From positions 14,597 through 78,596 of the IMG/VR virus record IMGVR_UViG_3300037797_000133: DNA of 64,000 nt; one strand, written 5' to 3'. Of this stretch, positions 1 through 34,095 are shown one piece after another. The stretch is from a virus (taxonomy: Duplodnaviria > Caudoviricetes). Made by a program: the position numbers and the translations under genes. The notes beneath the pieces were generated by a model, which saw nothing but the letters and a program-made list of their open reading frames with translations, made no database searches and was not told the DNA's origin. Numbering within the stretch: position 1 is the first letter of the stretch; each line of letters begins with the position of its first letter.

Positions 1-57
1 CGGCGAAGGCATCCACATCGGCGGGGACAACGTCGCCGACACGACGGGGGAGGGGCC

Positions 58-249
58 GTGAACGGTGGACCCGATCGCCAGGACCGCCCAGTGGCTGGTC
101 CCTCTGGTGTGTCTGGCCTGCGTCGTGGCTGGTCTCGTCGATGCCATGGTCGGCCGTTAGCTGACGTGGCGCTCCTGCTCGTCGGCCCGGTCGCCGTCAT
201 CGGCGTGGCCGCCGTCGCCTACCTGATCGCCACGGGGCGGATCCGATGA
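58..249 (+). CDS. small membrane protein
   Basis: C-terminal hydrophobic helix (ALLLVGPVAVIGVAAVAYLIA); ATGA overlap with next gene. Confidence 0.5.
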   Translation: MNGGPDRQDRPVAGPSGVSGLRRGWSRRCHGRPLADVALLLVGPVAVIGVAAVAYLIATGRIR

Positions 250-395
250 TCGTCCTCGACCACGACCCCCTAACCGACGAGGACCGCACCCTGGCCGGCC
301 CCGTCGAGCGGCGCATCCTCGCTGCGATCGACGAGTCGGAGCGGCTCGCCGCCGAGGAGGACGCCTGGCGGCGTCTGGCAGGGGAGGCGTCGTGA
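246..395 (+). CDS. hypothetical protein (49 aa)
   Basis: Read manually: MIVLDHDPL...GEAS*; coupled start/stop overlaps on both sides. Confidence 0.6.
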   Translation: MIVLDHDPLTDEDRTLAGPVERRILAAIDESERLAAEEDAWRRLAGEAS

Positions 396-568
396 TCGGC
401 CTCGCCTTCGGGGCGGTCCGTCACCGGATCGGCCTCCTCGTCGTCATCGCGGTGATCATCGTCTTCGCCACCGGCCTCCCCCTGCGGGTCGAGGAGCACT
501 TCGCCCCCGTCGACAACCCGTACGACGACACCCCCACGACCACCGAACCGGAGGTGGCATCACCGTGA
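392..568 (+). CDS. small single-TM protein, possible spread (Spd)-like accessory
   Basis: Read manually: MIGLAFGAVRHRIGLLVVIAVIIVFATGLP...; GTGA overlaps; precedes DUF2637 and TraB-like genes. Confidence 0.55.
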   Translation: MIGLAFGAVRHRIGLLVVIAVIIVFATGLPLRVEEHFAPVDNPYDDTPTTTEPEVASP

Positions 569-1638
569 GCAGCGCCAACGGACAGCGCTACGCCGAAGGC
601 GACATCTTCACCGTCTGGCGCGACCAGACCGAGGAGTACGTCGAGGAAGAGGGCAGGGTCGCCGCCCGGCGCACCACCACCGAACGGCGCCCCCGTACGC
701 CCACCGCCGCCGAGGGACGGGAGGCCGCAGGGTCGCTCCTCTTCGACGGGATCACCGCCCTCGGCATCGCGGTCCTTGGGCTCATCGGCTTCTACGTGAG
801 CTTCTCGACGGTCCGCGACTCGGCGGTCGGCCAGTCGTTCGGGTCGAAGGCGTGGGCGCTCCCGCTCACCGTCGACGCCGGCATCGCCGTCTTCACCGCC
901 CTCGACCTCCGCATGGCCGCCCACGGCATGCGCGCCCGCTGGGTGCGCGTGTTCCCGTGGGCGCTCAACGGCATCACCGTCTACCTGAACGGCGCCGAGC
1001 AGGCCACGTGGGCCGGCAAGATCGGCCACGCCGCCCTGCCGTTCATGTGGATCGGCGCCGTCGAGGCCGTCGCCCTCATCGTGAAGCGTCGCACCCAAGG
1101 CCCCAAGCCTGAGGTCGACCAGATCCCCCGGGCCCGCTGGCTGCTCGCCCCCGGCCCGACCCTGCTGCTGTGGCGGCGCATGCGCCTGTGGGGCGTCACG
1201 TCCTACGACGAGGCGCTCGAGCGCGAGTGCGACCGTCGCCTCGTCCGGGCCCGTCTCGCCCAGCAGCACGGTTCGCTGCGCAAGCTCCCGGCCGAGACCA
1301 GGGAGCTGTACCGGATGGGCAAGCTCCGGGCCACCGACGTCGTCCTGGAGGTGCCCGCGGTCGTCACGGTCGACCCGCCGGCCGCTCCTGCGGCCCCTGA
1401 GGCGCCCGTGGCGGCTCCGACGCTCGTCGCCGTCCCTGCACTGCCGCCGGCCGATGAGGCCCGCCGGGAGGACGTTGAGACGGCCGCCCGCCGGATCGTC
1501 CGCGACCAGTTCGACGGCAAGTGCCCCGGCCGCCCCACCCTCACCGCCGCCCTCAAGGCCGACGGACACACGATCAGCAACGCCGACGCCGCCGACCTGG
1601 TGCGCCGGCTGAAGGCCGAAGGGAACGACAGTGCTTGA
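565..1638 (+). CDS. DUF2637-type membrane protein of actinomycete plasmid/AICE transfer regions
   Basis: About 4 TM helices, AWALPLTVDAG, IPRARWLLAPGPTLLLWRRMRLW motif, Pro/Ala linker, C-terminal HTH-like segment. Confidence 0.75.
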   Translation: MSSANGQRYAEGDIFTVWRDQTEEYVEEEGRVAARRTTTERRPRTPTAAEGREAAGSLLFDGITALGIAVLGLIGFYVSFSTVRDSAVGQSFGSKAWALPLTVDAGIAVFTALDLRMAAHGMRARWVRVFPWALNGITVYLNGAEQATWAGKIGHAALPFMWIGAVEAVALIVKRRTQGPKPEVDQIPRARWLLAPGPTLLLWRRMRLWGVTSYDEALERECDRRLVRARLAQQHGSLRKLPAETRELYRMGKLRATDVVLEVPAVVTVDPPAAPAAPEAPVAAPTLVAVPALPPADEARREDVETAARRIVRDQFDGKCPGRPTLTAALKADGHTISNADAADLVRRLKAEGNDSA

Positions 1639-3898
1639 CCGCGAGGACAAGTCGCTGCGCCGCATACTCGAGCGCCGTAGTGGCCGGTACGTCAACGACG
1701 ACCTCGCCGACGACATGCTCGGCCACATGGGCGTCGGCCCCGTCGCCGCCACCGTCGTCGAAGACGTCGACTGGGACGAGGAGCTGTCCGAGCTCGAAGA
1801 CGTCATCGACGTCGAGCCGATCGACCCGCCCGGCGATCTGCCCGACCGCGGGGCACCGAAGCTGCCCCGGGCGGACCGGGAGTCCCGGCCGGTTCTGCCC
1901 GCCTGGCTCGACGCCCCGAAGGCAGCGGTCAAGCAGCGCTGCCGGGACCTCAAGCACGACGTGAAGTTCCACGCCACCCGGGCGCCGTCCTACGCCGGTC
2001 GGGCCGTGAAGTACGCGCCCGCTGGCGTGGGCCGCACCTACCGGGGCCTGTACCGCTGGGCGACCGACTACGAGTCGGCGCCCGCCCGGTACCTGGAGGC
2101 GCAGCGGGGCAACACGTCCGCGTACCTGGCGCTCGCTCAGCAGCGAGACGAGCGGGTGCATGACCGGCGGTTCCTGGCGATGGGTCTCGGCTGCCTACTG
2201 CCGCTCACGGTCCTCGCCGTCTGGTTCGGGCTGACCGGACCGGAGCTGCCCGGACAGACCCGCCTCGTTGCCTTCGTGGCGGCCCTTGTGACGGTCGTGG
2301 TCCTCGGCCATATCGGGGCACCGGAGGACAAGCCGATCGTCGAGTCGGCCGCCGCCGGCCCGGCACGCCGCCGGATCACCTGGTCGATGCTGCGGGCCGC
2401 GTTCGAGGCCGAGGGCGTGAAGCTGTCCAAGGCCCGCCCCGACGGCGCCCCCGCCGACCCGGCTCGAGAGATGACGCTCGTCCGGGAGATCTCCCGCGAC
2501 GCCCGAGACACCGGCTACGTGGCGACGATCGACCTGCCGTTGGGCAAGACCGCGGCGGACGCCATGGCGAAGCGGGACAAGATCGCCTCCGGGCTGTCCG
2601 TCTCCCGGGCCCAGGTGCACATCACCCCCGACGCGGACAGCGAGCGGCGCATCAACATCTACGTCGCCGACGTCGACCCGTTCACCCGCCCTCGCCGGGT
2701 CTCCCCGTTGGCGTCGCTGCGCCAGCTCGACTTCTGGGAGGGCTTCGACTTCGGCACCAACGCCAAGGGCGAACCGGTCCGGCTCAAGCTCGTGTGGACG
2801 CACCTGCTCGTCGCCGCCATCCCCCGGATGGGCAAGAGCTACGCCGCGCTCATCGCCGCGTGCGCCGCCGCCCTCGACCCGCGGGTGCGGATCATCATCC
2901 TCAACGGCAAGAAGGGCGCCTGGCGTCACCTCGCCAAGGTCTGCCACCGCTACGTGGCCGGCGCCCGCGACGAGGCCGTCCTCTACGTGCTGCGCACCCT
3001 GCGCGAGTGCAAGGCCGACATCGACGCCCGCGGCGACCGCATCGAGGAACTCGACGAAAAGTACGGCTACGGCGACAAGCTCGTCCCGCAGGTCGCCTCC
3101 GACCCGAGCCAGGGCATGCCCCTCGTCGCGATCTTCATCGACGAAGCGCAGCGCTACATCGGGCACGGACAGTACGGCGGCGAGATCCTCGCCCTCTTGA
3201 AGGACATCGCCAAGGTCGGACCCTCGGCCGGCTACATGCTGATCGTCGCTGTCCAGAAGCCGACCGGCGACGTCATCGACACCGACCTCCGGGACAACAT
3301 GGGGCTCCGCTACGTGCTCCGCATGAAGACCTCGGCGGGTTCGAAGGCGGCGCTCGGCGAGATCACCCCGGGCTTCGACCCGGTGCAGTTCTCGGACAGG
3401 CACAAGGGCGTCGGGGTGCTCGACGGGTCGGACAACGAGGAAGAGTCGCTCGACGGCGCGGACATCGACATTGTCCGCACGGACAGCCTCGACATGGCGA
3501 TGGTCGAGGAGATCGCGGACAGGGCCCATGCTGTCCGGACAGGCATGAACAAGCTGTCCGGCTACGCAGCGGGCGACGACCTGTCCGAGGAGTCGACGCC
3601 GTTCCTGCTGCTCGACCACCTGTCCGACGCCATCAAGCTCGGCGAGGACAAGGTGTGGTCAGCCGATCTGATCCGCCGCATCGCGGACAGTCACCCCGAG
3701 GCGTACGACGGCTGGTCGCCCGACGACCTGGCCAACCACCTGAAGCCGTACGGGGTCGAGACGATCCAGATCAGCCGCACCGTCACGGACCCTGAGACGG
3801 GCGTGAAGCGCCAGAAGAACTGGCGTGGCGTCGCCGTCGCGGACCTCACCGAGGCCTACAACCGGGAGATGGCGAAGCGCGCCGCGCTCGGCCAGTGA
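1631..3898 (+). CDS. traB: FtsK/SpoIIIE-family DNA translocase, Streptomyces TraB/AICE type
   Basis: Two N-terminal TMs, Walker A variant LLVAAIPRMGKS, Walker B AIFIDEAQ, VAVQKP, LRYVLRM, C-terminal wHTH-like domain (KVWSADLIRRIA...LKPYGVETIQI...NWRGV). Confidence 0.85.
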   Translation: MLDREDKSLRRILERRSGRYVNDDLADDMLGHMGVGPVAATVVEDVDWDEELSELEDVIDVEPIDPPGDLPDRGAPKLPRADRESRPVLPAWLDAPKAAVKQRCRDLKHDVKFHATRAPSYAGRAVKYAPAGVGRTYRGLYRWATDYESAPARYLEAQRGNTSAYLALAQQRDERVHDRRFLAMGLGCLLPLTVLAVWFGLTGPELPGQTRLVAFVAALVTVVVLGHIGAPEDKPIVESAAAGPARRRITWSMLRAAFEAEGVKLSKARPDGAPADPAREMTLVREISRDARDTGYVATIDLPLGKTAADAMAKRDKIASGLSVSRAQVHITPDADSERRINIYVADVDPFTRPRRVSPLASLRQLDFWEGFDFGTNAKGEPVRLKLVWTHLLVAAIPRMGKSYAALIAACAAALDPRVRIIILNGKKGAWRHLAKVCHRYVAGARDEAVLYVLRTLRECKADIDARGDRIEELDEKYGYGDKLVPQVASDPSQGMPLVAIFIDEAQRYIGHGQYGGEILALLKDIAKVGPSAGYMLIVAVQKPTGDVIDTDLRDNMGLRYVLRMKTSAGSKAALGEITPGFDPVQFSDRHKGVGVLDGSDNEEESLDGADIDIVRTDSLDMAMVEEIADRAHAVRTGMNKLSGYAAGDDLSEESTPFLLLDHLSDAIKLGEDKVWSADLIRRIADSHPEAYDGWSPDDLANHLKPYGVETIQISRTVTDPETGVKRQKNWRGVAVADLTEAYNREMAKRAALGQ

Positions 3899-5162: not shown

Positions 5163-5439
5163 CGTCGTCGTCCGTCGTGGCGTGAATGAGCGGGCGGCCC
5201 TCGGCGTCGTAGGCGCAGGCACCGTGCTGGCCGCACTCGGGACACGGGTTGGCGAGGCGCCGCTCCAGCTCGTACTCGGCGGCGTCCGGGAGGTTCGGGT
5301 CGTCCTCGGGGTCGTACGGCTGGTCAGGTCCGTCCTGGCCGAGGACGTGGACCCAGAACTCGCCGTCGTCCATCGCGTCGCGCAGGTCCGCCTCGGGGCA
5401 GAGCGGCACGCCGGCGGCGTCGACGAGGTGGCCGCTCAC
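5155..5439 (-). CDS. hypothetical protein with CxxC...C motif
   Basis: CPECGQHGACAYD; acidic; GTGA coupling. Confidence 0.7.
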   Translation of the reverse strand: MSGHLVDAAGVPLCPEADLRDAMDDGEFWVHVLGQDGPDQPYDPEDDPNLPDAAEYELERRLANPCPECGQHGACAYDAEGRPLIHATTDDDDA

Positions 5440-5684
5440 GCTGCGGCTTCCTGCTCGTCGAGGAACGCCTGCACCGCTGCGTGGTTACTGAGGCAGCGGG
5501 CCAGGAACTGGCCGACCTCGAACTCGTCGAAAGCCGTGCAGATCGGGACGTCAGGCCGCTTGCCCGTCACGGGCCGGACGATCGACCAGCCCTTCGGGTA
5601 GGTGCGGGCGACGGTGTCGCCGATCACGTCGTCGTCGTCGGCGAACAGCTCGTAGTGGCCCTCGGGGAACGGGAGGCCGCTCAC
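5436..5684 (-). CDS. hypothetical phage protein
   Basis: GTGA-coupled ORF, 82 aa. Confidence 0.7.
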   Translation of the reverse strand: MSGLPFPEGHYELFADDDDVIGDTVARTYPKGWSIVRPVTGKRPDVPICTAFDEFEVGQFLARCLSNHAAVQAFLDEQEAAA

Positions 5685-10826: not shown

Positions 10827-12260
10827 GTGGAGGTGCTCCCGCGGGCCGCTGCGATCTACACGAGGATCTCGCTCGACCGCTCCGGCGAGGGCCTCGGCGT
10901 GGCCCGCCAGGAAGCCGACTGCCGACGTCTCGCCACCGAACGTGGCTGGCACGTCCACCGTGTGTACCCGGACAACGACCTCAGCGGTAGTGCCCGCGGT
11001 GTCACCCGCCCCGAGTACGACCAGCTCTGCGCCGACATCGCTGCCGGGATCGTCGATGCCGTCATCTGCTGGGACCTCGACCGGCTCACCCGCCAGCCCC
11101 GCCAGCTAGAGGAGTTCGTCGAGCTGTGCGACCGGGCCGGCGTACGTCACCTCGCTACCGTGTCCGGCGACATCCACATCGGCACCGGCGACGGCCTCCT
11201 CGTCGCGAGGATCAAGGGCGCGGTGGCGGCCGAGGAGGCGCGCAAGATCCGCCAGCGGGTCGCTCGCAAGCAGCAGGAGCTGGCCGAACGGGGTCTGCCC
11301 GGTGGCGGCGGCAAACGGCCACTCGGCTTCCAAGCCGACCGGATCACCCACGACCCCACGGAGGCAGCGGCCCTCCGCTACGCCGTCGATGTCGTGCTTA
11401 CCGGTGGCACCCTGGCTGACGCCGCAGCGGACGTGTCGTCGCGCCTCGCCCGCCCCGTCGATCCGTCCTCGCTGCGCCGAGTGCTCGTGTCGCCTCGCCT
11501 CGCCGGCCTCCGCCAGCGGCACGGCGCGATCGTCGGCGAGGCGAAGTGGGCGCCGATCATCGAGCCGGAGACCCAGGAACGGCTACGCGCCACGCTCGCC
11601 GGCAGGTACCGCTACAGCCGCCCCTACCGGGCCCACCTCCTCGGCGGCATCGCCCGCTGCGGCGCCCCAGGCTGCGACGCCAAGCTCCACGCCCAGGTCG
11701 TGAAAGGCCGACGGGAGGGTCTCGTCCAGTACTCGTGCCGGCGGGCCCGCGGCGGCTGCGGCCGAGTCGCCGTCACCGCCGACATCCTCGAAGGCGAGGT
11801 GCTGGCCGAGGTGCAACGCTGGCTACAGCAGCCCGAGTTCGCCGCCGCCATCGCCGCCGCCGTCGACGGCGACCCGCAGGGCGACCTCGACGACCTCGCC
11901 GCACAGGTCGTAGCGGCGGAGGCCGCGCTCGAGTCGCTCGCCCGGGAACGTCAGGAACTCGGCCTGGAGGTGGCGGAGTGGAAGGCGTTGCGGGAACCGA
12001 TCGCAGCCCGGCTCGACGCCGCCCGCCGCACGCTCAGCGAGGCCCGGCAGCGCAGCGGCCCGACACCGTTCTCAGGCGTCACCCCGGCCGAGCTCGCGGA
12101 GCTATGGCCGGCGCTGGCCGCCGACCCGGCCACGATGCGAGAGCTGATCCGCCTGCTCGTGGGCGAGATCCGGGTACGCCCCGTAGGCAAGGGCTGGCGA
12201 AGCGCAGTGCGTCAGCGGGTGCAGGTCGTGCCGGCATGGAGTGTCAGTGGCAGGGGCTGA
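10827..12260 (+). CDS. int: large serine recombinase (phage integrase)
   Basis: Resolvase motif AAIYTRIS, DLDRLTR, recombinase domain, Zn ribbon CGAPGC...YSCRRARGGCG, coiled coil. Confidence 0.95.
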   Translation: MEVLPRAAAIYTRISLDRSGEGLGVARQEADCRRLATERGWHVHRVYPDNDLSGSARGVTRPEYDQLCADIAAGIVDAVICWDLDRLTRQPRQLEEFVELCDRAGVRHLATVSGDIHIGTGDGLLVARIKGAVAAEEARKIRQRVARKQQELAERGLPGGGGKRPLGFQADRITHDPTEAAALRYAVDVVLTGGTLADAAADVSSRLARPVDPSSLRRVLVSPRLAGLRQRHGAIVGEAKWAPIIEPETQERLRATLAGRYRYSRPYRAHLLGGIARCGAPGCDAKLHAQVVKGRREGLVQYSCRRARGGCGRVAVTADILEGEVLAEVQRWLQQPEFAAAIAAAVDGDPQGDLDDLAAQVVAAEAALESLARERQELGLEVAEWKALREPIAARLDAARRTLSEARQRSGPTPFSGVTPAELAELWPALAADPATMRELIRLLVGEIRVRPVGKGWRSAVRQRVQVVPAWSVSGRG

Positions 12261-12341
12261 CAAGCCCGTACCCCCCCGGTTCACTTGCCCACGGATCGTG
12301 GGTAGGGTCGCGCGCACAGGGAGTAGTCGAACGGAGCGGGG

Positions 12342-12569
12342 TTGATGGGGATCAGCGATGATCCACGCGGCGAGGCGGGATTGAGCCGGCGGGTCGATGA
12401 GCTGGAGGACGGCTTCATCGAACTGCAAACGATCGTGTTCAACAGGTCGTCGGAGCAGCGCGAGGACTTGGACCGCAAGGCGGCGTCGGTCCACGAGCGC
12501 TTAGACGACCTGGAACGGGTGATGCAGCTCATCCTCGCCCAGCTGAATGATCGGAAGCCCGCTGGCTGA
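12342..12569 (+). CDS. small coiled-coil protein resembling the repressor C-terminus
   Basis: VHERLDDLERVMQLILAQL vs repressor VEERLADLEAQMREILRAL; TAGGGT -10-like box upstream. Confidence 0.65.
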   Translation: MMGISDDPRGEAGLSRRVDELEDGFIELQTIVFNRSSEQREDLDRKAASVHERLDDLERVMQLILAQLNDRKPAG

Positions 12570-12903
12570 GCGCCCGCAGGATCTCCCGCATCTGGGCCTC
12601 CAGGTCCGCTAGCCGTTCCTCCACCGTCCGCTCCCGCCCGCCGATGAGGCTGTCGCGGGGGGCGGCTGCGTCCTCGGGTTCGCCGCCCTTGCGGATGGCG
12701 TCGATGGCCCCGGGCGGCCAGTCCAGCGCGATCGACACGGAACGTAGCGTCGTGGGTTGGTAGCGGCTCTGCCGCGCCGTCTCGATCAACCGGATCGTCG
12801 ATGTCGCTACGCCGGCCGCGTGGGCGACGGCTTCCTGCGTGAGGCCGAGATCCTCGCGCCGCTGGCGAGCGCGCGCGCCCACCCGTTTCCAACCGTCGTC
12901 CAT
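12529..12903 (-). CDS. XRE-family HTH immunity repressor (CI-like)
   Basis: RREDLGLTQEAVAHAAGVATSTIRLIE; divergent from a second XRE gene, next to the integrase. Confidence 0.85.
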   Translation of the reverse strand: MDDGWKRVGARARQRREDLGLTQEAVAHAAGVATSTIRLIETARQSRYQPTTLRSVSIALDWPPGAIDAIRKGGEPEDAAAPRDSLIGGRERTVEERLADLEAQMREILRALSQRASDHSAGRG

Positions 12904-12981
12904 GGGGCGAGTTTGTACGGCAACTGTCGCGTGATTCAAGCGCCGACACCCTCGGTGACCAGGACTTTTCGGATCGTCACG

Positions 12982-13044
12982 GTAAGCGGTTGAAACACCG
13001 GCGCCAAGCGCTTGTATCGGCGCCGGTCACCGCTTACACTGGCG
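12982..13044 (+). promoter_or_regulatory. rightward early promoter and operator region
   Basis: TTGTAT(13012)-N17-TACACT(13035); nested inverted repeats GTAAGCGGT/ACCGCTTAC and ACCGGCGCC/GGCGCCGGT. Confidence 0.75.
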
Positions 13045-13047
13045 GTC

Positions 13048-13353
13048 GTGACGACGGACGCCGCGACCCTTCCCGCTGATCTCGACGAGCCGCCCGCCGC
13101 TGGGCTCGTCGCGGTCGCTTGGCACGCCTTCCACCGACGTAAGGACGACCTCAAGCTGAGCCAGCGCGAGGTCGCCGAGCGAGCGGCGGTCTCCGAGTAC
13201 ACGATCCGGCTGCTGGAGAAGGCGGGCCAGTCGAGCTTTCAGCGCTCGACGATGCGCTCCATCTCGCTCGCCCTCGACTGGCCGGGCGACGCTCTGGAGC
13301 GCATCCAGGCTGGCCTGCCCCCGGTCGCTCGCAAGCGCAAGGCATCGGCGTGA
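13048..13353 (+). CDS. XRE-family HTH Cro-like regulator
   Basis: KDDLKLSQREVAERAAVSEYTIRLLE; leaderless GTG 7 nt after the -10 box. Confidence 0.85.
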   Translation: MTTDAATLPADLDEPPAAGLVAVAWHAFHRRKDDLKLSQREVAERAAVSEYTIRLLEKAGQSSFQRSTMRSISLALDWPGDALERIQAGLPPVARKRKASA

Positions 13354-13481
13354 GCGACGACGCCCGACCCGAGTGGGGGCCGGCACCCGCTGACGTGTGT
13401 GAGCGCGTCGCCCGCCTGCTCGCCCCGAAGCTCAAGGAGCTGCGCGAGCGCAAGGCCGAGGCCGAGCGAGGTGTGGCGTGA
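13350..13481 (+). CDS. hypothetical protein (43 aa)
   Basis: Read manually: MSDDARPEWGP...; GTGA overlaps on both sides. Confidence 0.55.
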   Translation: MSDDARPEWGPAPADVCERVARLLAPKLKELRERKAEAERGVA

Positions 13482-14023
13482 GCGGCCGGGAGTGGGCCCG
13501 CATCGATCCGGCGCCGTCGTTCGGCATGGCCCTGTCGAGCCAGGGCGGGACCGTCCATCGGGTCCGGGCGGCCTATCGGTACTCACCTCCCCTCGGCATG
13601 CCGTCTGCGATCTGGGCGGTGTGGGAATGCCGGCCCGGCACCTGCGTCGAGGCTTGGCATTCGTCGGCCCGCCACGTCCAGCTGATGGACGACCCCGGCG
13701 CCCATCTTCGCTGCGCCAAGTGCGGCGTGGAGGACACCGGCAATCCGTCACTGGCATCGGGCCGGCCTGGCTGGCCGGACATCCCGGTGTCGCTCTACGT
13801 CGCCCGTCGCGTCGACGGCGTGGTGAAGGTCGGCTGCACGACTGACGTCGAGCGGCGGATGCGGCAGCTCGACGCGGAGCTGCTGGCCAGCCGTCCCGGC
13901 AACTACGTCGACGAGCGTCGCTTACTGGCCGGTCTGCCGCTGGAACCCGTCGAGGGCCAGGAGTGGTTCGCCCCTGGCTCTGAAGCCGTCCTGCTGGCCG
14001 CTCTCAACGAGGTCGCGGCATGA
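13478..14023 (+). CDS. GIY-YIG/T5orf172-like domain protein
   Basis: C-terminal LYVARRVDGVVKVGCTTDVERRM...E...EWF. Confidence 0.6.
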   Translation: MSGREWARIDPAPSFGMALSSQGGTVHRVRAAYRYSPPLGMPSAIWAVWECRPGTCVEAWHSSARHVQLMDDPGAHLRCAKCGVEDTGNPSLASGRPGWPDIPVSLYVARRVDGVVKVGCTTDVERRMRQLDAELLASRPGNYVDERRLLAGLPLEPVEGQEWFAPGSEAVLLAALNEVAA

Positions 14024-15705: not shown

Positions 15706-16661
15706 TGGCCCTCGCCAAGGACCTGTCCCACCTGCCGACCCCGGCAGCCACGAAGGACGAGCCGTTCGCCCCGGACCCGGAGCCGACGTTCCTCCTGCCG
15801 TACCTGGACGACCTCGTCGCCCGGAACGCAGCCGAGGGCCAGCGCCCGCACGCCGTCGCGGGCACCCGGTTCCGCCACTCGATGGCCGGCAACTGCTCGA
15901 GGGCCGTCGCCTACTACGCGCTCGGCGTCGACGAGTCGAACCCGATGGACCTGTGCGGCGTGGTCGTCACCGGCAACGGGACGGCGAAGCACGACGAGAT
16001 CCAGGACGTGCTCATCCGTGAGGTCGACGGCCTCACCGTCGAGGTGCCCTGCCAGGTCGACGACTTCGACGGGTCCGGCAACGCCGACGGCCTGCGCGTC
16101 ATCGACGGCAAGCGCATCTGCTGGGAGCACAAGAACGTCGGCGGGTTCGCCTTCAAGATGGCGATCGGGGAGCGCTCGGCGCCGCAGGGCCCGAAGCACG
16201 ACCACATCGTCCAGGCGGGCCTGAACGCCCTCGCTCTGGGTGCTGACACGGTGGTCATCACCTACCTGACGTGGGAGGCGGTGAGCGTCCAGGCCGCGGC
16301 CCGGAAGCACATCGACGGCCCGAACCGCATCGCCGCCCAGTGGACGATCGAGCGGGACGTCTGGGAGCCGCTGGCCCTCGATGAGGTGAAGCGCATCAAG
16401 GCGATCCTCGCCATGGTCGACGGCGGCACGCTCCCGGCCCGCAAGATCCCGGACCCGCAGCTGCCGAAGGGCGCGGTCATCGTCGACCCTTCGTCGGCTC
16501 GGTGGGAGCAGCACAACGCCGACGGCGAGATCCTCGATACCGGATCTACTTGGTCGTGTTTCTACTGTCGCTGGCAGGACCTCTGCGTTCGCACGCCCGC
16601 CGGCCGTGCCCCCGTCGAGACGCTCGTCGAGATCGGCGCACTCCCCGAGGTGGCGGCATGA
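15705..16661 (+). CDS. Cas4/AddB-like PD-(D/E)XK exonuclease with Fe-S staple
   Basis: N-terminal NCSRAVAYY, GNADG...WEHK, HIVQAGLN, C-terminal CFYCRWQDLC (1+3 Cys). Confidence 0.8.
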   Translation: MALAKDLSHLPTPAATKDEPFAPDPEPTFLLPYLDDLVARNAAEGQRPHAVAGTRFRHSMAGNCSRAVAYYALGVDESNPMDLCGVVVTGNGTAKHDEIQDVLIREVDGLTVEVPCQVDDFDGSGNADGLRVIDGKRICWEHKNVGGFAFKMAIGERSAPQGPKHDHIVQAGLNALALGADTVVITYLTWEAVSVQAAARKHIDGPNRIAAQWTIERDVWEPLALDEVKRIKAILAMVDGGTLPARKIPDPQLPKGAVIVDPSSARWEQHNADGEILDTGSTWSCFYCRWQDLCVRTPAGRAPVETLVEIGALPEVAA

Positions 16662-17638
16662 CCCGGCGCCCCGTCCCCGTGCGCTCCCTCGCGACGCGCC
16701 TGCCCGACGCCGGCCGCATCCGCATTGGCGTGAAGGTCCCGGTCCCGGGCAAGGACCGCAACGGCAACCCGAAGTCCCGGCCCGAGAAGATCGACCGGTT
16801 CCGCTTCACGAGCGCCGACCGGACGGCCCTCGACCAGGTGGCCGCCATCTACGGCGGCCAGGTCACCGAGTGGGTCGAGCCGAAGGCCGCGCCCGGCCAG
16901 TGGCAGGTCATCACCGACGCCCGCGAGATCCGGATCGCTCTGCCGCCGGACCCGCTGGGCAACACGCCCGTCTACGAGCTGTGGGCCGGTGGCGGCTGCC
17001 AGCGGCGCTGCGACGGCGAGACCGTCGAGATGCTCACCAACGGGCCCGACGGCCTCGACCTCCAGACCGCTCCGTGCATCTGCGACCGCAAGCAGGCGCT
17101 CGAGTGCTCGCTGCACACCCGCCTGTCGGTGCTGCTGCCCGAGGTCCGGTTCGCCGGCGTGTGGCGGCTGGACACGAAGTCGCAGAACGCCGCGGTGGAG
17201 CTACCCGGGATGGTGGAGCTGATCCGGTCGCTTCAGGACCGGGGGATCGTCCGGGCGACGATGCGCGTCGAGTGGCGCAAGCAGGTCCAGGCCGGCCAGA
17301 CCCGCGAGTTCGCCGTCCCGGTCCTCGGTGTCGACGACACGCTGAACGAGCTCGCGGCCGGCTCCGCCCGGCTGGGTGCCCTGTCGTCCGCTGCTGCGCC
17401 GGAGCCGATGGCCGAGCTGAACGCCGGCCCCGACCTCGACGACGAGGCAGTCGAGGCCGAGATCGTTGAGCCGACCATCTCGCCCGACGACGCCGAGTCG
17501 ATCAAGGCCCGGGTCAACGCGGGAGGCCCGGCCGTCATCAAGGCGTGGCGTACCCAGTTCGGTGTGGCCCCTGCGGATCTGCCGGCTGAGCGGTACGACG
17601 AGGCGCTCGCCTTCCTCGCCGAGGGGGTGACGGCGTGA
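16658..17638 (+). CDS. phiC31/phiBT1 gp3-like recombination directionality factor family protein
   Basis: GRIRIG...FRFTS...AAIYGG...ELWAGGGCQRRCDG...PCIC...C, matching the gp3-like pattern from memory; serine integrase in the same genome. Confidence 0.7.
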   Translation: MTRRPVPVRSLATRLPDAGRIRIGVKVPVPGKDRNGNPKSRPEKIDRFRFTSADRTALDQVAAIYGGQVTEWVEPKAAPGQWQVITDAREIRIALPPDPLGNTPVYELWAGGGCQRRCDGETVEMLTNGPDGLDLQTAPCICDRKQALECSLHTRLSVLLPEVRFAGVWRLDTKSQNAAVELPGMVELIRSLQDRGIVRATMRVEWRKQVQAGQTREFAVPVLGVDDTLNELAAGSARLGALSSAAAPEPMAELNAGPDLDDEAVEAEIVEPTISPDDAESIKARVNAGGPAVIKAWRTQFGVAPADLPAERYDEALAFLAEGVTA

Positions 17639-20200: not shown

Positions 20201-20511
20201 TCTGGCTCGCCGTCCTCGCCGGCCGGGCGTGGCTCTGGTCCTACGGGCTGAACGCCGTCTACGCCGTCGGTCTCATCGTCGGCGCCGCGGCCGGCTGGGT
20301 GGCCCGCGAGTTCGCCGGCGCCTACCTCCCCCAGCTCGACGCCGAACCCGGCGCCACCTACGGGCGCCTGGTGCGCACCACCCGCCAGCAGCTCCTCGAC
20401 CGGGTCGCCGCCCGCTCCCAGACGCTCCGCCACCGCCAGCTCGACACGGCCGAGATCGCCGCGCTCGACCTCGACGACGACGAGCTCGAGCCGAAGGTGG
20501 CGGCGGCGTGA
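20197..20511 (+). CDS. membrane protein
   Basis: Hydrophobic N-terminal half. Confidence 0.6.
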   Translation: MIWLAVLAGRAWLWSYGLNAVYAVGLIVGAAAGWVAREFAGAYLPQLDAEPGATYGRLVRTTRQQLLDRVAARSQTLRHRQLDTAEIAALDLDDDELEPKVAAA

Positions 20512-21379
20512 GCTCGAGCACCTGCACCCGTTGCGAGCTCGAGCTCGAGGCCGGCGACGAGCTCACGCGGGACGGCCTGCCGTACTGCTCGGACCGGTGC
20601 GCCGAGCTCGGCCCGAAGCCGGTGGTGCTCGAGGGGCAGCGCGCCCTGTTCGAGCTCGAGGCGACGTCGTGAGCACGCTCGAGCGAGTCGAGCTCGAGGT
20701 GGGCTACGCCGCCCCGGCCATGCCGGACTCGCCGGTGATGGCCGCCTCCAGATGGCCCACGAATGCCGAGCTCGTTGCCGACGTGGCGCGCCTTGGATGG
20801 TTGCGCTCAAGCGACACGGTGCTCGACCCGACGTACGGCCGGGGCCGCTGGTGGGCCAAGTGGCGGCCCGCCCGCCTCGTCGCGACCGACATCCGCCTCC
20901 GTGGAGCTCGAGACGCACGACCCCATGACGCCCGCTGCGACTTCCGTGCCCTGCCGTTCCGCTCGAGCTCGTTCGACGCCGTCGCATGGGACCCGGCCTA
21001 CGTCGCAGCCGGCGGCAGGAAGACGACGGGCATGGTCGACTTCCACGACCGGTACGGGATGGACGACGCCCCCGCCACGCCGGCCGAGCTCCAAGCCCAC
21101 AACAACGCCGGACTGCCCGAGCTCGTCCGCGTGCTCAAGCCCGGCGGGATCCTGCTGGCGAAGACGCAGGACTACGTGTCGTCCGGGAAGCTCTGGCCGG
21201 GCACGCACTACACCCTGACGGCCGCCCTGGAGCTCGAGCTCGAGCTCGTCGACCGTCTCGAGCACATCGGCTCCCCGCGCCCGCAGCCGCCCCGGTCTCG
21301 AGCGGACGGCCAGCCGGTGCGCCAGCAGCACAGCCGCCGAAATCTGTCGACGCTGTTCGTGTTCCGGAAGCCGCTCGAG
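20482..21379. repeat. dense cluster of GAGCTC/CTCGAG hexamers
   Basis: Hand count of 16 GAGCTC and 15 CTCGAG in about 900 bp, in several reading frames. Confidence 0.85.
20508..20672 (+). CDS. small zinc-finger protein
   Basis: CTRC...YCSDRCA. Confidence 0.6.
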   Translation: MSSSTCTRCELELEAGDELTRDGLPYCSDRCAELGPKPVVLEGQRALFELEATS

Positions 21380-32956: not shown

Positions 32957-33532
32957 ATGACGAGTGACCCACAGCGTTGGGAGGACTGGGCTGCATGCGA
33001 AGGGCTCGACCCCGGCCTGTGGTTCCTTGACAAAGGACACGTCCTCAGCCCGAAGGCGAAACAGACGTGCCACGACTGCCCCGTCTTCTTCGCCTGCCTG
33101 GAGCAATCGCTCGGCCGACGTGAGACCCACGGCGGTTGGGCCGGCGCCGCGCCCCGCACCCGCCGGGTCCTCTGGCACGCCTGGGTCGCCCGCACCCACG
33201 ACTACGACCCGGCTTGCACCCGCAGCTCGTGTTGGTGCCGTGTCGCCGAGACGCACCGCGAGTCGCTGATCGAGTCGAGCACGCCGCTCCAGCTGAACGG
33301 GCCGGGCGCCCGATGCGGCAAGCGCAGCACGTACGCCCGTGGCTGCCGGTGCCTCGCCTGCCGCACGGCGATCTCACCGACCGGGGTGCGGATGCGTGAC
33401 GCCGGCATCGACATCCTCGCCTGGTTCGAACGCTGGTTCGACGGCGACGCCCGCTACGACGACAGCGTGATGCCGCTCGTCCGGCGCATGGCCAAGTACG
33501 AGATCACCGACGGCGAAGCCGCAGCGGCGTGA
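32957..33532 (+). CDS. whiB: WhiB-family transcription factor with extra Cys-rich C-terminal module
   Basis: WAAC...WF...AKQTCHDCPVFFACL...GGWAG; then CG..STY..GCRCLAC. Confidence 0.85.
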   Translation: MTSDPQRWEDWAACEGLDPGLWFLDKGHVLSPKAKQTCHDCPVFFACLEQSLGRRETHGGWAGAAPRTRRVLWHAWVARTHDYDPACTRSSCWCRVAETHRESLIESSTPLQLNGPGARCGKRSTYARGCRCLACRTAISPTGVRMRDAGIDILAWFERWFDGDARYDDSVMPLVRRMAKYEITDGEAAAA

Positions 33533-34095
33533 GCATCTTCGACGGTCTCGCCCTCGGCACCTACCGGCTCGTGTGCATCGACCCGCCGTGGCCAGCCGAC
33601 ATCACTCAACGCCTCGGCGGCGCCGGCCGTCGACGTCGCAGCCGGGCAGCCGACCACTACGCCACGATGAGCCTCGACGACATCCGGGCGTTGCCGATCA
33701 GCGACCTCGCCGCCCCCGACGCCTGGTGCGTCCTGTGGGTCACGAACGCCGTCATGACCCGCGGCGACCACGCCGGCCTGCTCGAGGGGTGGGGGTTCCG
33801 TCCGATCACCGCTGTCACCTGGTGCAAGCCGGGCGGCGGTGGGTTGGGCGTCTACTTCCGTGGCGCCACAGAGCACGCCCTGATCGGCGTCAGGGGCACC
33901 GGCACCGTGCCGGCTACGCCGTGGCCCTCCACCTGGTTCCAGGCGGCGAGAACGCATCACAGCGCCAAACCCGACGCGCTCATGGACATCCTCGAGCTGG
34001 TCGGCCCGACACCACGGGTCGAGCTGTTCCAGCGCCGGCCCCGGTTCGGGTGGGATGGCTGGGGCGCCGGCTACGAGTCGCAGGTGTCGGCGTGA
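33529..34095 (+). CDS. MT-A70 family adenine methyltransferase (second copy)
   Basis: CIDPPW, YATMSLDDI, LWVT, WGF...WCK, HSAKP, VELFQR. Confidence 0.9.
   Translation: MSIFDGLALGTYRLVCIDPPWPADITQRLGGAGRRRRSRAADHYATMSLDDIRALPISDLAAPDAWCVLWVTNAVMTRGDHAGLLEGWGFRPITAVTWCKPGGGGLGVYFRGATEHALIGVRGTGTVPATPWPSTWFQAARTHHSAKPDALMDILELVGPTPRVELFQRRPRFGWDGWGAGYESQVSA

Follow-up and report, generated by a model that had tools for sequence, protein, structure and literature searches.

In the SinI–SinR pair of Bacillus subtilis (PDB 1b0n), an Xre/434-type helix-turn-helix (HTH) repressor that self-associates through a helical C-terminal region is controlled by a small, adjacent, HTH-less protein that resembles this C-terminal region in sequence and forms a heterocomplex with SinR that stops its oligomerisation. 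A related design operates in most arbitrium Bacillus phages, which carry AimC, an HTH repressor of 80–140 aa without an autocleavage domain, AimL, encoded by a divergent Cro-like gene, and AimX, a highly divergent protein of 29–80 aa whose gene is convergent with aimC and overlaps it in some phages (bioRxiv 10.1101/2025.11.23.689978). AimX binds the C-terminal oligomerisation domain of AimC so that DNA binding is blocked, and its authors likened it to SinI/SinR (bioRxiv 10.1101/2025.11.23.689978). The locus described here shares with the arbitrium module a 124-aa HTH repressor without autocleavage, a divergent Cro-like paralogue and a 74-aa ORF that is convergent with the repressor gene and overlaps it by 41 nt; it differs in having a serine integrase upstream and no aimR–aimP, it has no sequence relation to that module, and the host phylum is another one. 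Compared with SinI–SinR, the repressor ends in one helix where SinR has a two-helix hook, the gene pair overlaps head-on whereas sinI and sinR stand in tandem, and the setting is the immunity switch of a high-GC actinophage, with a candidate pair known from sequence and models; neither protein matches the Pfam SinI family (PF08671) at E ≤ 0.1. Repressors are also inactivated without cleavage by Qtip of Vibrio phage VP882 and its kin, proteins of about 80 aa that act on a cI-type repressor; Qtip targets the N-terminal domain and aggregates the repressor, and it is not known to mimic the C-terminus or to be encoded convergently with cI. Proteins of the Ant/KilAC type, such as Che8 gp49 and ThulaThula gp38, belong to the cluster F and P mycobacteriophages that carry the nearest annotated HTH relatives of our repressor, but they are about 290 aa long and are encoded within the early lytic operon, by genes that do not run towards the repressor gene; a domain of this type is absent here.

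The window analysed, a stretch of 64,000 nucleotides, comes from an IMG/VR viral contig that measures 78.6 kb and has a GC content of 71%. Its sole match among sequenced phages is Streptomyces phage ZL12, through one large protein, and no close viral contig turned up in scans that used the repressor and the integrase as queries; as far as these searches reach, the phage is isolated. A large serine integrase gene (10827–12260, plus strand; Pfam Resolvase, E 3.9e-26; phrog_95 integrase, E 7.9e-78) lies directly upstream of the small ORF and is co-directional with it, with a spacer of 84 nt. The small ORF, the candidate antirepressor gene (12345–12569, plus strand), encodes 74 aa from the ATG at 12345, or 75 aa from a TTG at 12342, and runs head-on into the CI-like repressor gene (12529–12903, minus strand; 124 aa, P0002; HTH_31, E 4.6e-9, and HTH_3; phrog_6288, E 7e-16), the two 3′ ends overlapping by 41 nt (12529–12569). 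The first-pass annotation had described a 75-aa ORF and a convergent, overlapping CI-like gene; both are present, the ORF being called as 74 aa. On the other side of the repressor lies a Cro-like HTH gene (13048–13353, plus strand; 101 aa from a GTG at 13048, or 113 aa from a TTG at 13012), and further downstream a gene for a Gp3-like recombination directionality factor (RDF; 16502–17638, plus strand; PF18897, E 1.4e-36). We considered whether the small ORF might itself encode an RDF or excisionase and rejected this, as it has no RDF match and the role is filled by the Gp3-like gene.

The small ORF is very probably a real gene. Its GC content at codon positions 1, 2 and 3 (0.68, 0.37 and 0.83) matches that of the real genes of the phage, and its codon log-likelihood, under a model trained on 15 long genes of the window, is +0.34 bit per codon, compared with −0.01 or less in the five other frames, 0.35 for the integrase and 0.40 for the Cro-like gene. 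A GGAG motif lies 8 nt 5′ of the ATG at 12345, and the 74-aa product was also called by the gene caller of the protein database. The AF2 model of the protein is a two-helix hairpin (helices 10–32 and 36–69; pLDDT 82) with a heptad pattern visible in both helices, and no Pfam family reaches threshold, in keeping with the earlier observation that the protein has no HTH. Homologues were found neither by tblastn against 50,697 phage records nor by a word-index search of 5.8 billion proteins, nor in IMG/VR pattern scans, the ESM Atlas or PDB sequences, and phmmer against 1.84 billion representatives returned only the protein itself. Its hairpin model had zero Foldseek matches in the PDB and BFVD, and a VIA-wide comparison returned generic helical hairpins only (Z ≤ 6.3), with nothing specific.

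The HTH domain of the repressor has tblastn matches to annotated mycobacteriophage immunity repressors, and its AF2 model consists of the HTH domain (residues 1–79), a low-confidence disordered linker (80–93) and a long amphipathic C-terminal helix (94–121; 12541–12624, minus strand). Pfam searches detected no peptidase or autocleavage domain in the protein, so another means of inactivation is required, and no other inactivator of the Ant, KilAC or Bro kinds was found among the early genes scanned. In the PDB, Foldseek matched the repressor model best to the SinR chain of the SinR/SinI complex (1b0n_A; 111 columns, E 5.9e-4), and next to ClgR, P22 c2 and 434 Cro. The homologue P0003 and the homologous product of a further locus, L018, retain the EERL..LE motif of this helix and its hydrophobic a/d positions. 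Since the six a/d positions are hydrophobic in all three family members found, the helix is likely to be a self-association element, and we infer that the repressor probably dimerises via this lone zipper-like helix of about three heptads. The Cro-like protein is 50% identical to the repressor over the HTH domain (31/62 by BLASTP, E 8e-19) and ends just past it, without a C-terminal helix; it is in effect the repressor minus that helix, and the presence of such an HTH-only paralogue indicates that local module duplication has occurred at this locus.

Between the repressor and Cro-like genes, k-mer and inverted-repeat analysis delimited a putative divergent promoter/operator region of 108 nt (12940–13047). 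A large, imperfect palindrome within it has its centre at 13009/13010 and carries the inverted elements GTAAGCGGT, ACCGGCGCC and TCGTCACG; the three inverted 8–9-mers, at 12974/13047, 12982/13029 and 12997/13019, are likely to be operators overlapping back-to-back promoters. The putative rightward promoter of the region reads TTGTAT-N17-TACACT, and a promoter on this Cro side would start the mRNA at about the GTG at 13048, with no leader or almost none.

The first-pass annotation had drawn attention to a likeness between the small protein and the C-terminal helix of the repressor, with 11 of 19 residues identical in the same heptad register, and had proposed from it a dominant-negative antirepressor. 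The likeness itself was confirmed. Residues 49–67 of the small protein (codons at 12489–12545, plus strand) align without gaps to repressor residues 94–112 (12568–12624) with 11/19 identities, and BLASTP extends the match to 12/23 (E 4e-4 as a single comparison). If Val49 and Val94 are set at position d, the two helices agree at each of the six a/d core residues and also in an Arg(g)/Glu(e) pair, a possible bridge across a parallel dimer. Positions a, d, e and g are identical in 9/12 cases, and positions b, c and f in 2/7 (Fisher one-sided p 0.067). The two proteins are each other's best match among the roughly 100 coding-like ORFs of the window: the small protein scores 51 against the repressor and 44 against the next protein, with other window proteins at 41–44, and the repressor tail scores 48 against the small protein and 39 against the next. 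The small protein scores 33 against the two true homologues of the repressor, and the repressor tail scores no higher than 40 against any of 540 neighbour ORFs of other loci. These scores make the likeness specific to the cognate repressor. Plain shuffles equalled the observed score in 9/5000 and 2/5000 cases. Shuffles that preserve heptad classes did so in 181/20000 cases (0.9%) for the small protein and 581/20000 (2.9%) for the repressor helix. Because these latter values are marginal (p 0.009–0.029) and the helix pair was selected from a scan over very many genes, we take the similarity, which lies weakly above chance, as suggestive only.

Related loci show what else can occupy the space between integrase and repressor. 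A search for integrase homologues led to two related elements, L010 (integrase identity 55%) and L011/L012 (51%). In each, the integrase is followed by a plus-strand ORF (124 or 107 aa) convergent with an HTH_31/HTH_3 gene (116 or 121 aa), beyond which lies a divergent HTH gene (72–78 aa). The contig of the repressor homologue P0003 (L002) likewise has a convergent ORF, of 106 aa. The convergent overlaps measure 40 nt in L010, 46 nt in L011 and 59 nt in L002, and the ORFs in this slot are coding-like (GC3 0.88–0.93). Two of these slot genes, P0124 and P0126, are akin solely to each other (E 9e-16) and were unrelated to the known families searched; we rejected them as homologues of the small ORF (BLASTP E 33 and 7.7; hhalign probability 0.1%), which the L002 slot gene does not resemble either. 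Co-variation of small protein and repressor in related phages, suggested earlier as a check, was not seen: in the only loci available, the slot genes are unlike the tails of their own repressors (E 0.44 and 9.6 for P0124 and P0126, and 9.9 in L002). In L018, which encodes the third member of the repressor family, the gene downstream of the repressor is co-directional and no convergent gene is present, and the other integrase relatives (45–56% identical), on short contigs, have different neighbours and added no syntenic loci. The head-on overlapping slot thus recurs, but sequence mimicry does not. The small ORF is therefore not conserved in sequence, as its only match among 1.84 billion representatives is itself, but its position is, the slot being refilled with other genes.

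Two side observations concern the same set of contigs. In both L010 and L011 (positions 1–3500 of each), a DUF2637 gene and a gene of 665–761 aa lie left of the integrase, as in the present contig, and L011 carries a WhiB gene within its early operon; this points to a common lineage of phage-like elements comprising L010, L011 and our contig. We also surveyed 13 non-redundant short metagenome repressors for mimicry, comparing the C-terminal 45 aa of each with neighbouring ORFs, and only one case stood out. In this gut-metagenome locus (L021), a 122-aa repressor (21–389) and a 136-aa neighbour (1165–1575) have a common C-terminal tail (score 66 versus a background of about 19), and the neighbour probably represents a full-length paralogue, not a mini-decoy.

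Architecture and precedent together make the antirepressor reading the best single mechanism for this locus. We regard the 74-aa protein as a plausible candidate for a SinI/AimX-like small antirepressor of the CI-like repressor, a reading held tentatively and at somewhat less than an even chance. The second helix of the small protein has the six core residues and the Arg(g)/Glu(e) pair of the repressor helix; docked against that helix, the small protein would form a 1:1 three-helix bundle with the repressor in place of the repressor–repressor pair. The repressor, left monomeric, would then grip the palindromic operators at 12940–13047 more weakly, and operator release would favour the Cro-like paralogue and the lytic cycle. 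In addition, the head-on, terminator-less overlap of 41 nt would set transcription of each gene against that of the other. Formation of the heterocomplex and the direction of its effect are putative here; the complex may form as described. The coding statistics of the ORF, the lack of a cleavage domain in the repressor, the SinR match of the repressor model, the cognate-specific core identities, the recurring slot, the AimX-like layout, the module duplication seen in the Cro-like paralogue and the RDF role filled by another gene count in favour and make this mechanism plausible; the marginal p values, the absence of synonymous-site similarity, the orphan status of the ORF, the lack of mimicry among the slot genes, the locus without a convergent gene (L018), the missing SinI signature and the lack upstream of an SOS box or another recognisable input count against it.

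The alternative with most weight, scarcely less likely in our view than the antirepressor reading, is that the small ORF encodes a real coiled-coil protein with another role, perhaps that of an accessory or exclusion protein made in lysogens from the variable integrase–repressor slot, and that the helix likeness arose by chance between amphipathic helices rich in Glu, Arg, Leu and Asp in a phage of 71% GC. The frequency with which heptad-preserving shuffles equal the score and the further window proteins at 41–44 speak for a chance likeness, and another role fits an orphan ORF in a region that is mosaic downstream of related integrases and is filled there by unrelated genes without mimicry. 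A match that is reciprocal best, cognate-specific and concentrated in the core speaks against chance, and another role leaves aside that the layout fits proven antirepressor modules and that a non-cleavable repressor needs an inactivator, for which the early genes scanned offer nothing else.

An effect exerted mainly in cis or through RNA, by transcriptional interference, or by antisense pairing of the integrase/small-ORF transcript with that of the repressor, across the overlap and with the peptide secondary, appears unlikely. The first-pass annotation had described the two coding segments (12489–12545 and 12568–12624) as an imperfect inverted repeat suggestive of an inverted duplication. They are complementary at 32 of 57 positions, an unusual value given that random in-frame pairs average 18.5/57 (p about 2e-4); the complementarity reaches only 56%, however, and the repeat finder did not report the pair. 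Identity by codon position is 12/19 at the first, 12/19 at the second and 8/19 at the third, where random pairs give 7.8/19. With third positions at chance, the DNA likeness is a by-product of the peptide likeness, and the proposed duplication finds no echo at synonymous sites: a recent inverted duplication is not supported, and an ancient one may conceivably be the source of the segment pair. The RNA from 12470 to 12645 folds no more stably than shuffled sequence, whichever strand is taken (z −0.30 and −0.35), and no intrinsic terminator was predicted at the convergent overlap; a selected RNA hairpin or bidirectional terminator was rejected on these grounds. The 3′ overlap of 40–59 nt in four loci with differing proteins, and the lack of a predicted terminator, would suit an effect in cis. 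On the other hand, all four slot ORFs are strongly coding-like (GC3 0.83–0.93), which argues for selection on the protein, no stable RNA structure was found, and in the arbitrium phages it was AimX protein, not antisense RNA, that acted in trans (bioRxiv 10.1101/2025.11.23.689978).

How the candidate antirepressor gene might be switched on was approached from its upstream region and its codons. Reading the sequence upstream suggests a putative promoter, TTCACT-N17-TAGGGT (12281–12308, plus strand), whose spacer contains a 15-bp palindrome, CCCACGgatCGTGGG (12288–12302); a scan with an E. coli-type consensus detected no promoter at 12281–12308. An operator common to this upstream sequence and the repressor/Cro region was sought and discarded, since the one 8-mer and one 9-mer in common are at chance level. 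No LexA-box-like site with up to three mismatches occurs between 12017 and 14940, and SOS control of the small ORF was rejected for want of such a site nearby. Elsewhere in the window, the sole zero-mismatch match to the actinobacterial SOS box TCGAAC-N4-GTTCGA lies at 33426–33441, about 90 nt 5′ of an ORF at 33529–34095 that may be an SOS-controlled late or middle gene. With up to three mismatches, the whole window holds 57 matches to this pattern versus 31 expected from shuffles, part of them in a GAGCTC/CTCGAG-rich stretch near 20500–21250.

The codon count revealed a TTA codon in the small ORF (12501–12503, plus strand) that encodes Leu53, at an a position of the heptad core; the aligned leucine of the repressor is specified by the rare codon CTA. 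TTA occurs 3 times among about 1480 leucine codons of the window. A second instance is codon 149 of a 181-aa T5orf172-like early gene (13478–14023) and the third is codon 102 of a probable shadow ORF (5182–5601), so that 2/3 fall within the immunity/early region. Translation of TTA in Streptomyces requires the bldA tRNA. Were the host a Streptomyces, this distribution of TTA could mean translational gating of the bldA type, and UUA as a phage sensor of host state has been proposed earlier (PMC10732093). It is conceivable, if quite improbable, that this is a Streptomyces-type temperate phage whose small protein is a cognate-specific zipper-helix decoy with translation gated by bldA through its core TTA, which would tie induction to host development and not to SOS. 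In such a phage, each repressor module would also exist as a separate duplicate that competes with the repressor, the HTH as the Cro-like protein and the zipper as the hairpin.

It is very improbable that the small ORF is a chance open frame in the integrase–repressor spacer, perhaps an attP or terminator region, as its lack of homologues and the small palindrome upstream might suggest, given codon-position GC and codon likelihood like those of real genes with no other frame fitting, GGAG 8 nt before the ATG, and coding-like genes in the same slot of related phages. Integration-dependent immunity, with attP inside the repressor gene, was also considered, and we found no evidence for it.

Short non-cleavable repressors are common in actinophages, and for most of them we know of no described route of inactivation. 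At present the antirepressor reading concerns one orphan gene with a marginally significant resemblance to its neighbour, and its value is that of a testable lead. Should it be true, the SinI/AimX design would extend to high-GC Actinobacteria, and a convergent mini-gene lying over the 3′ end of a repressor gene would become a search rule for antirepressors that homology searches miss. The pair would also provide a compact, orthogonal repressor and antirepressor for Streptomyces genetics.
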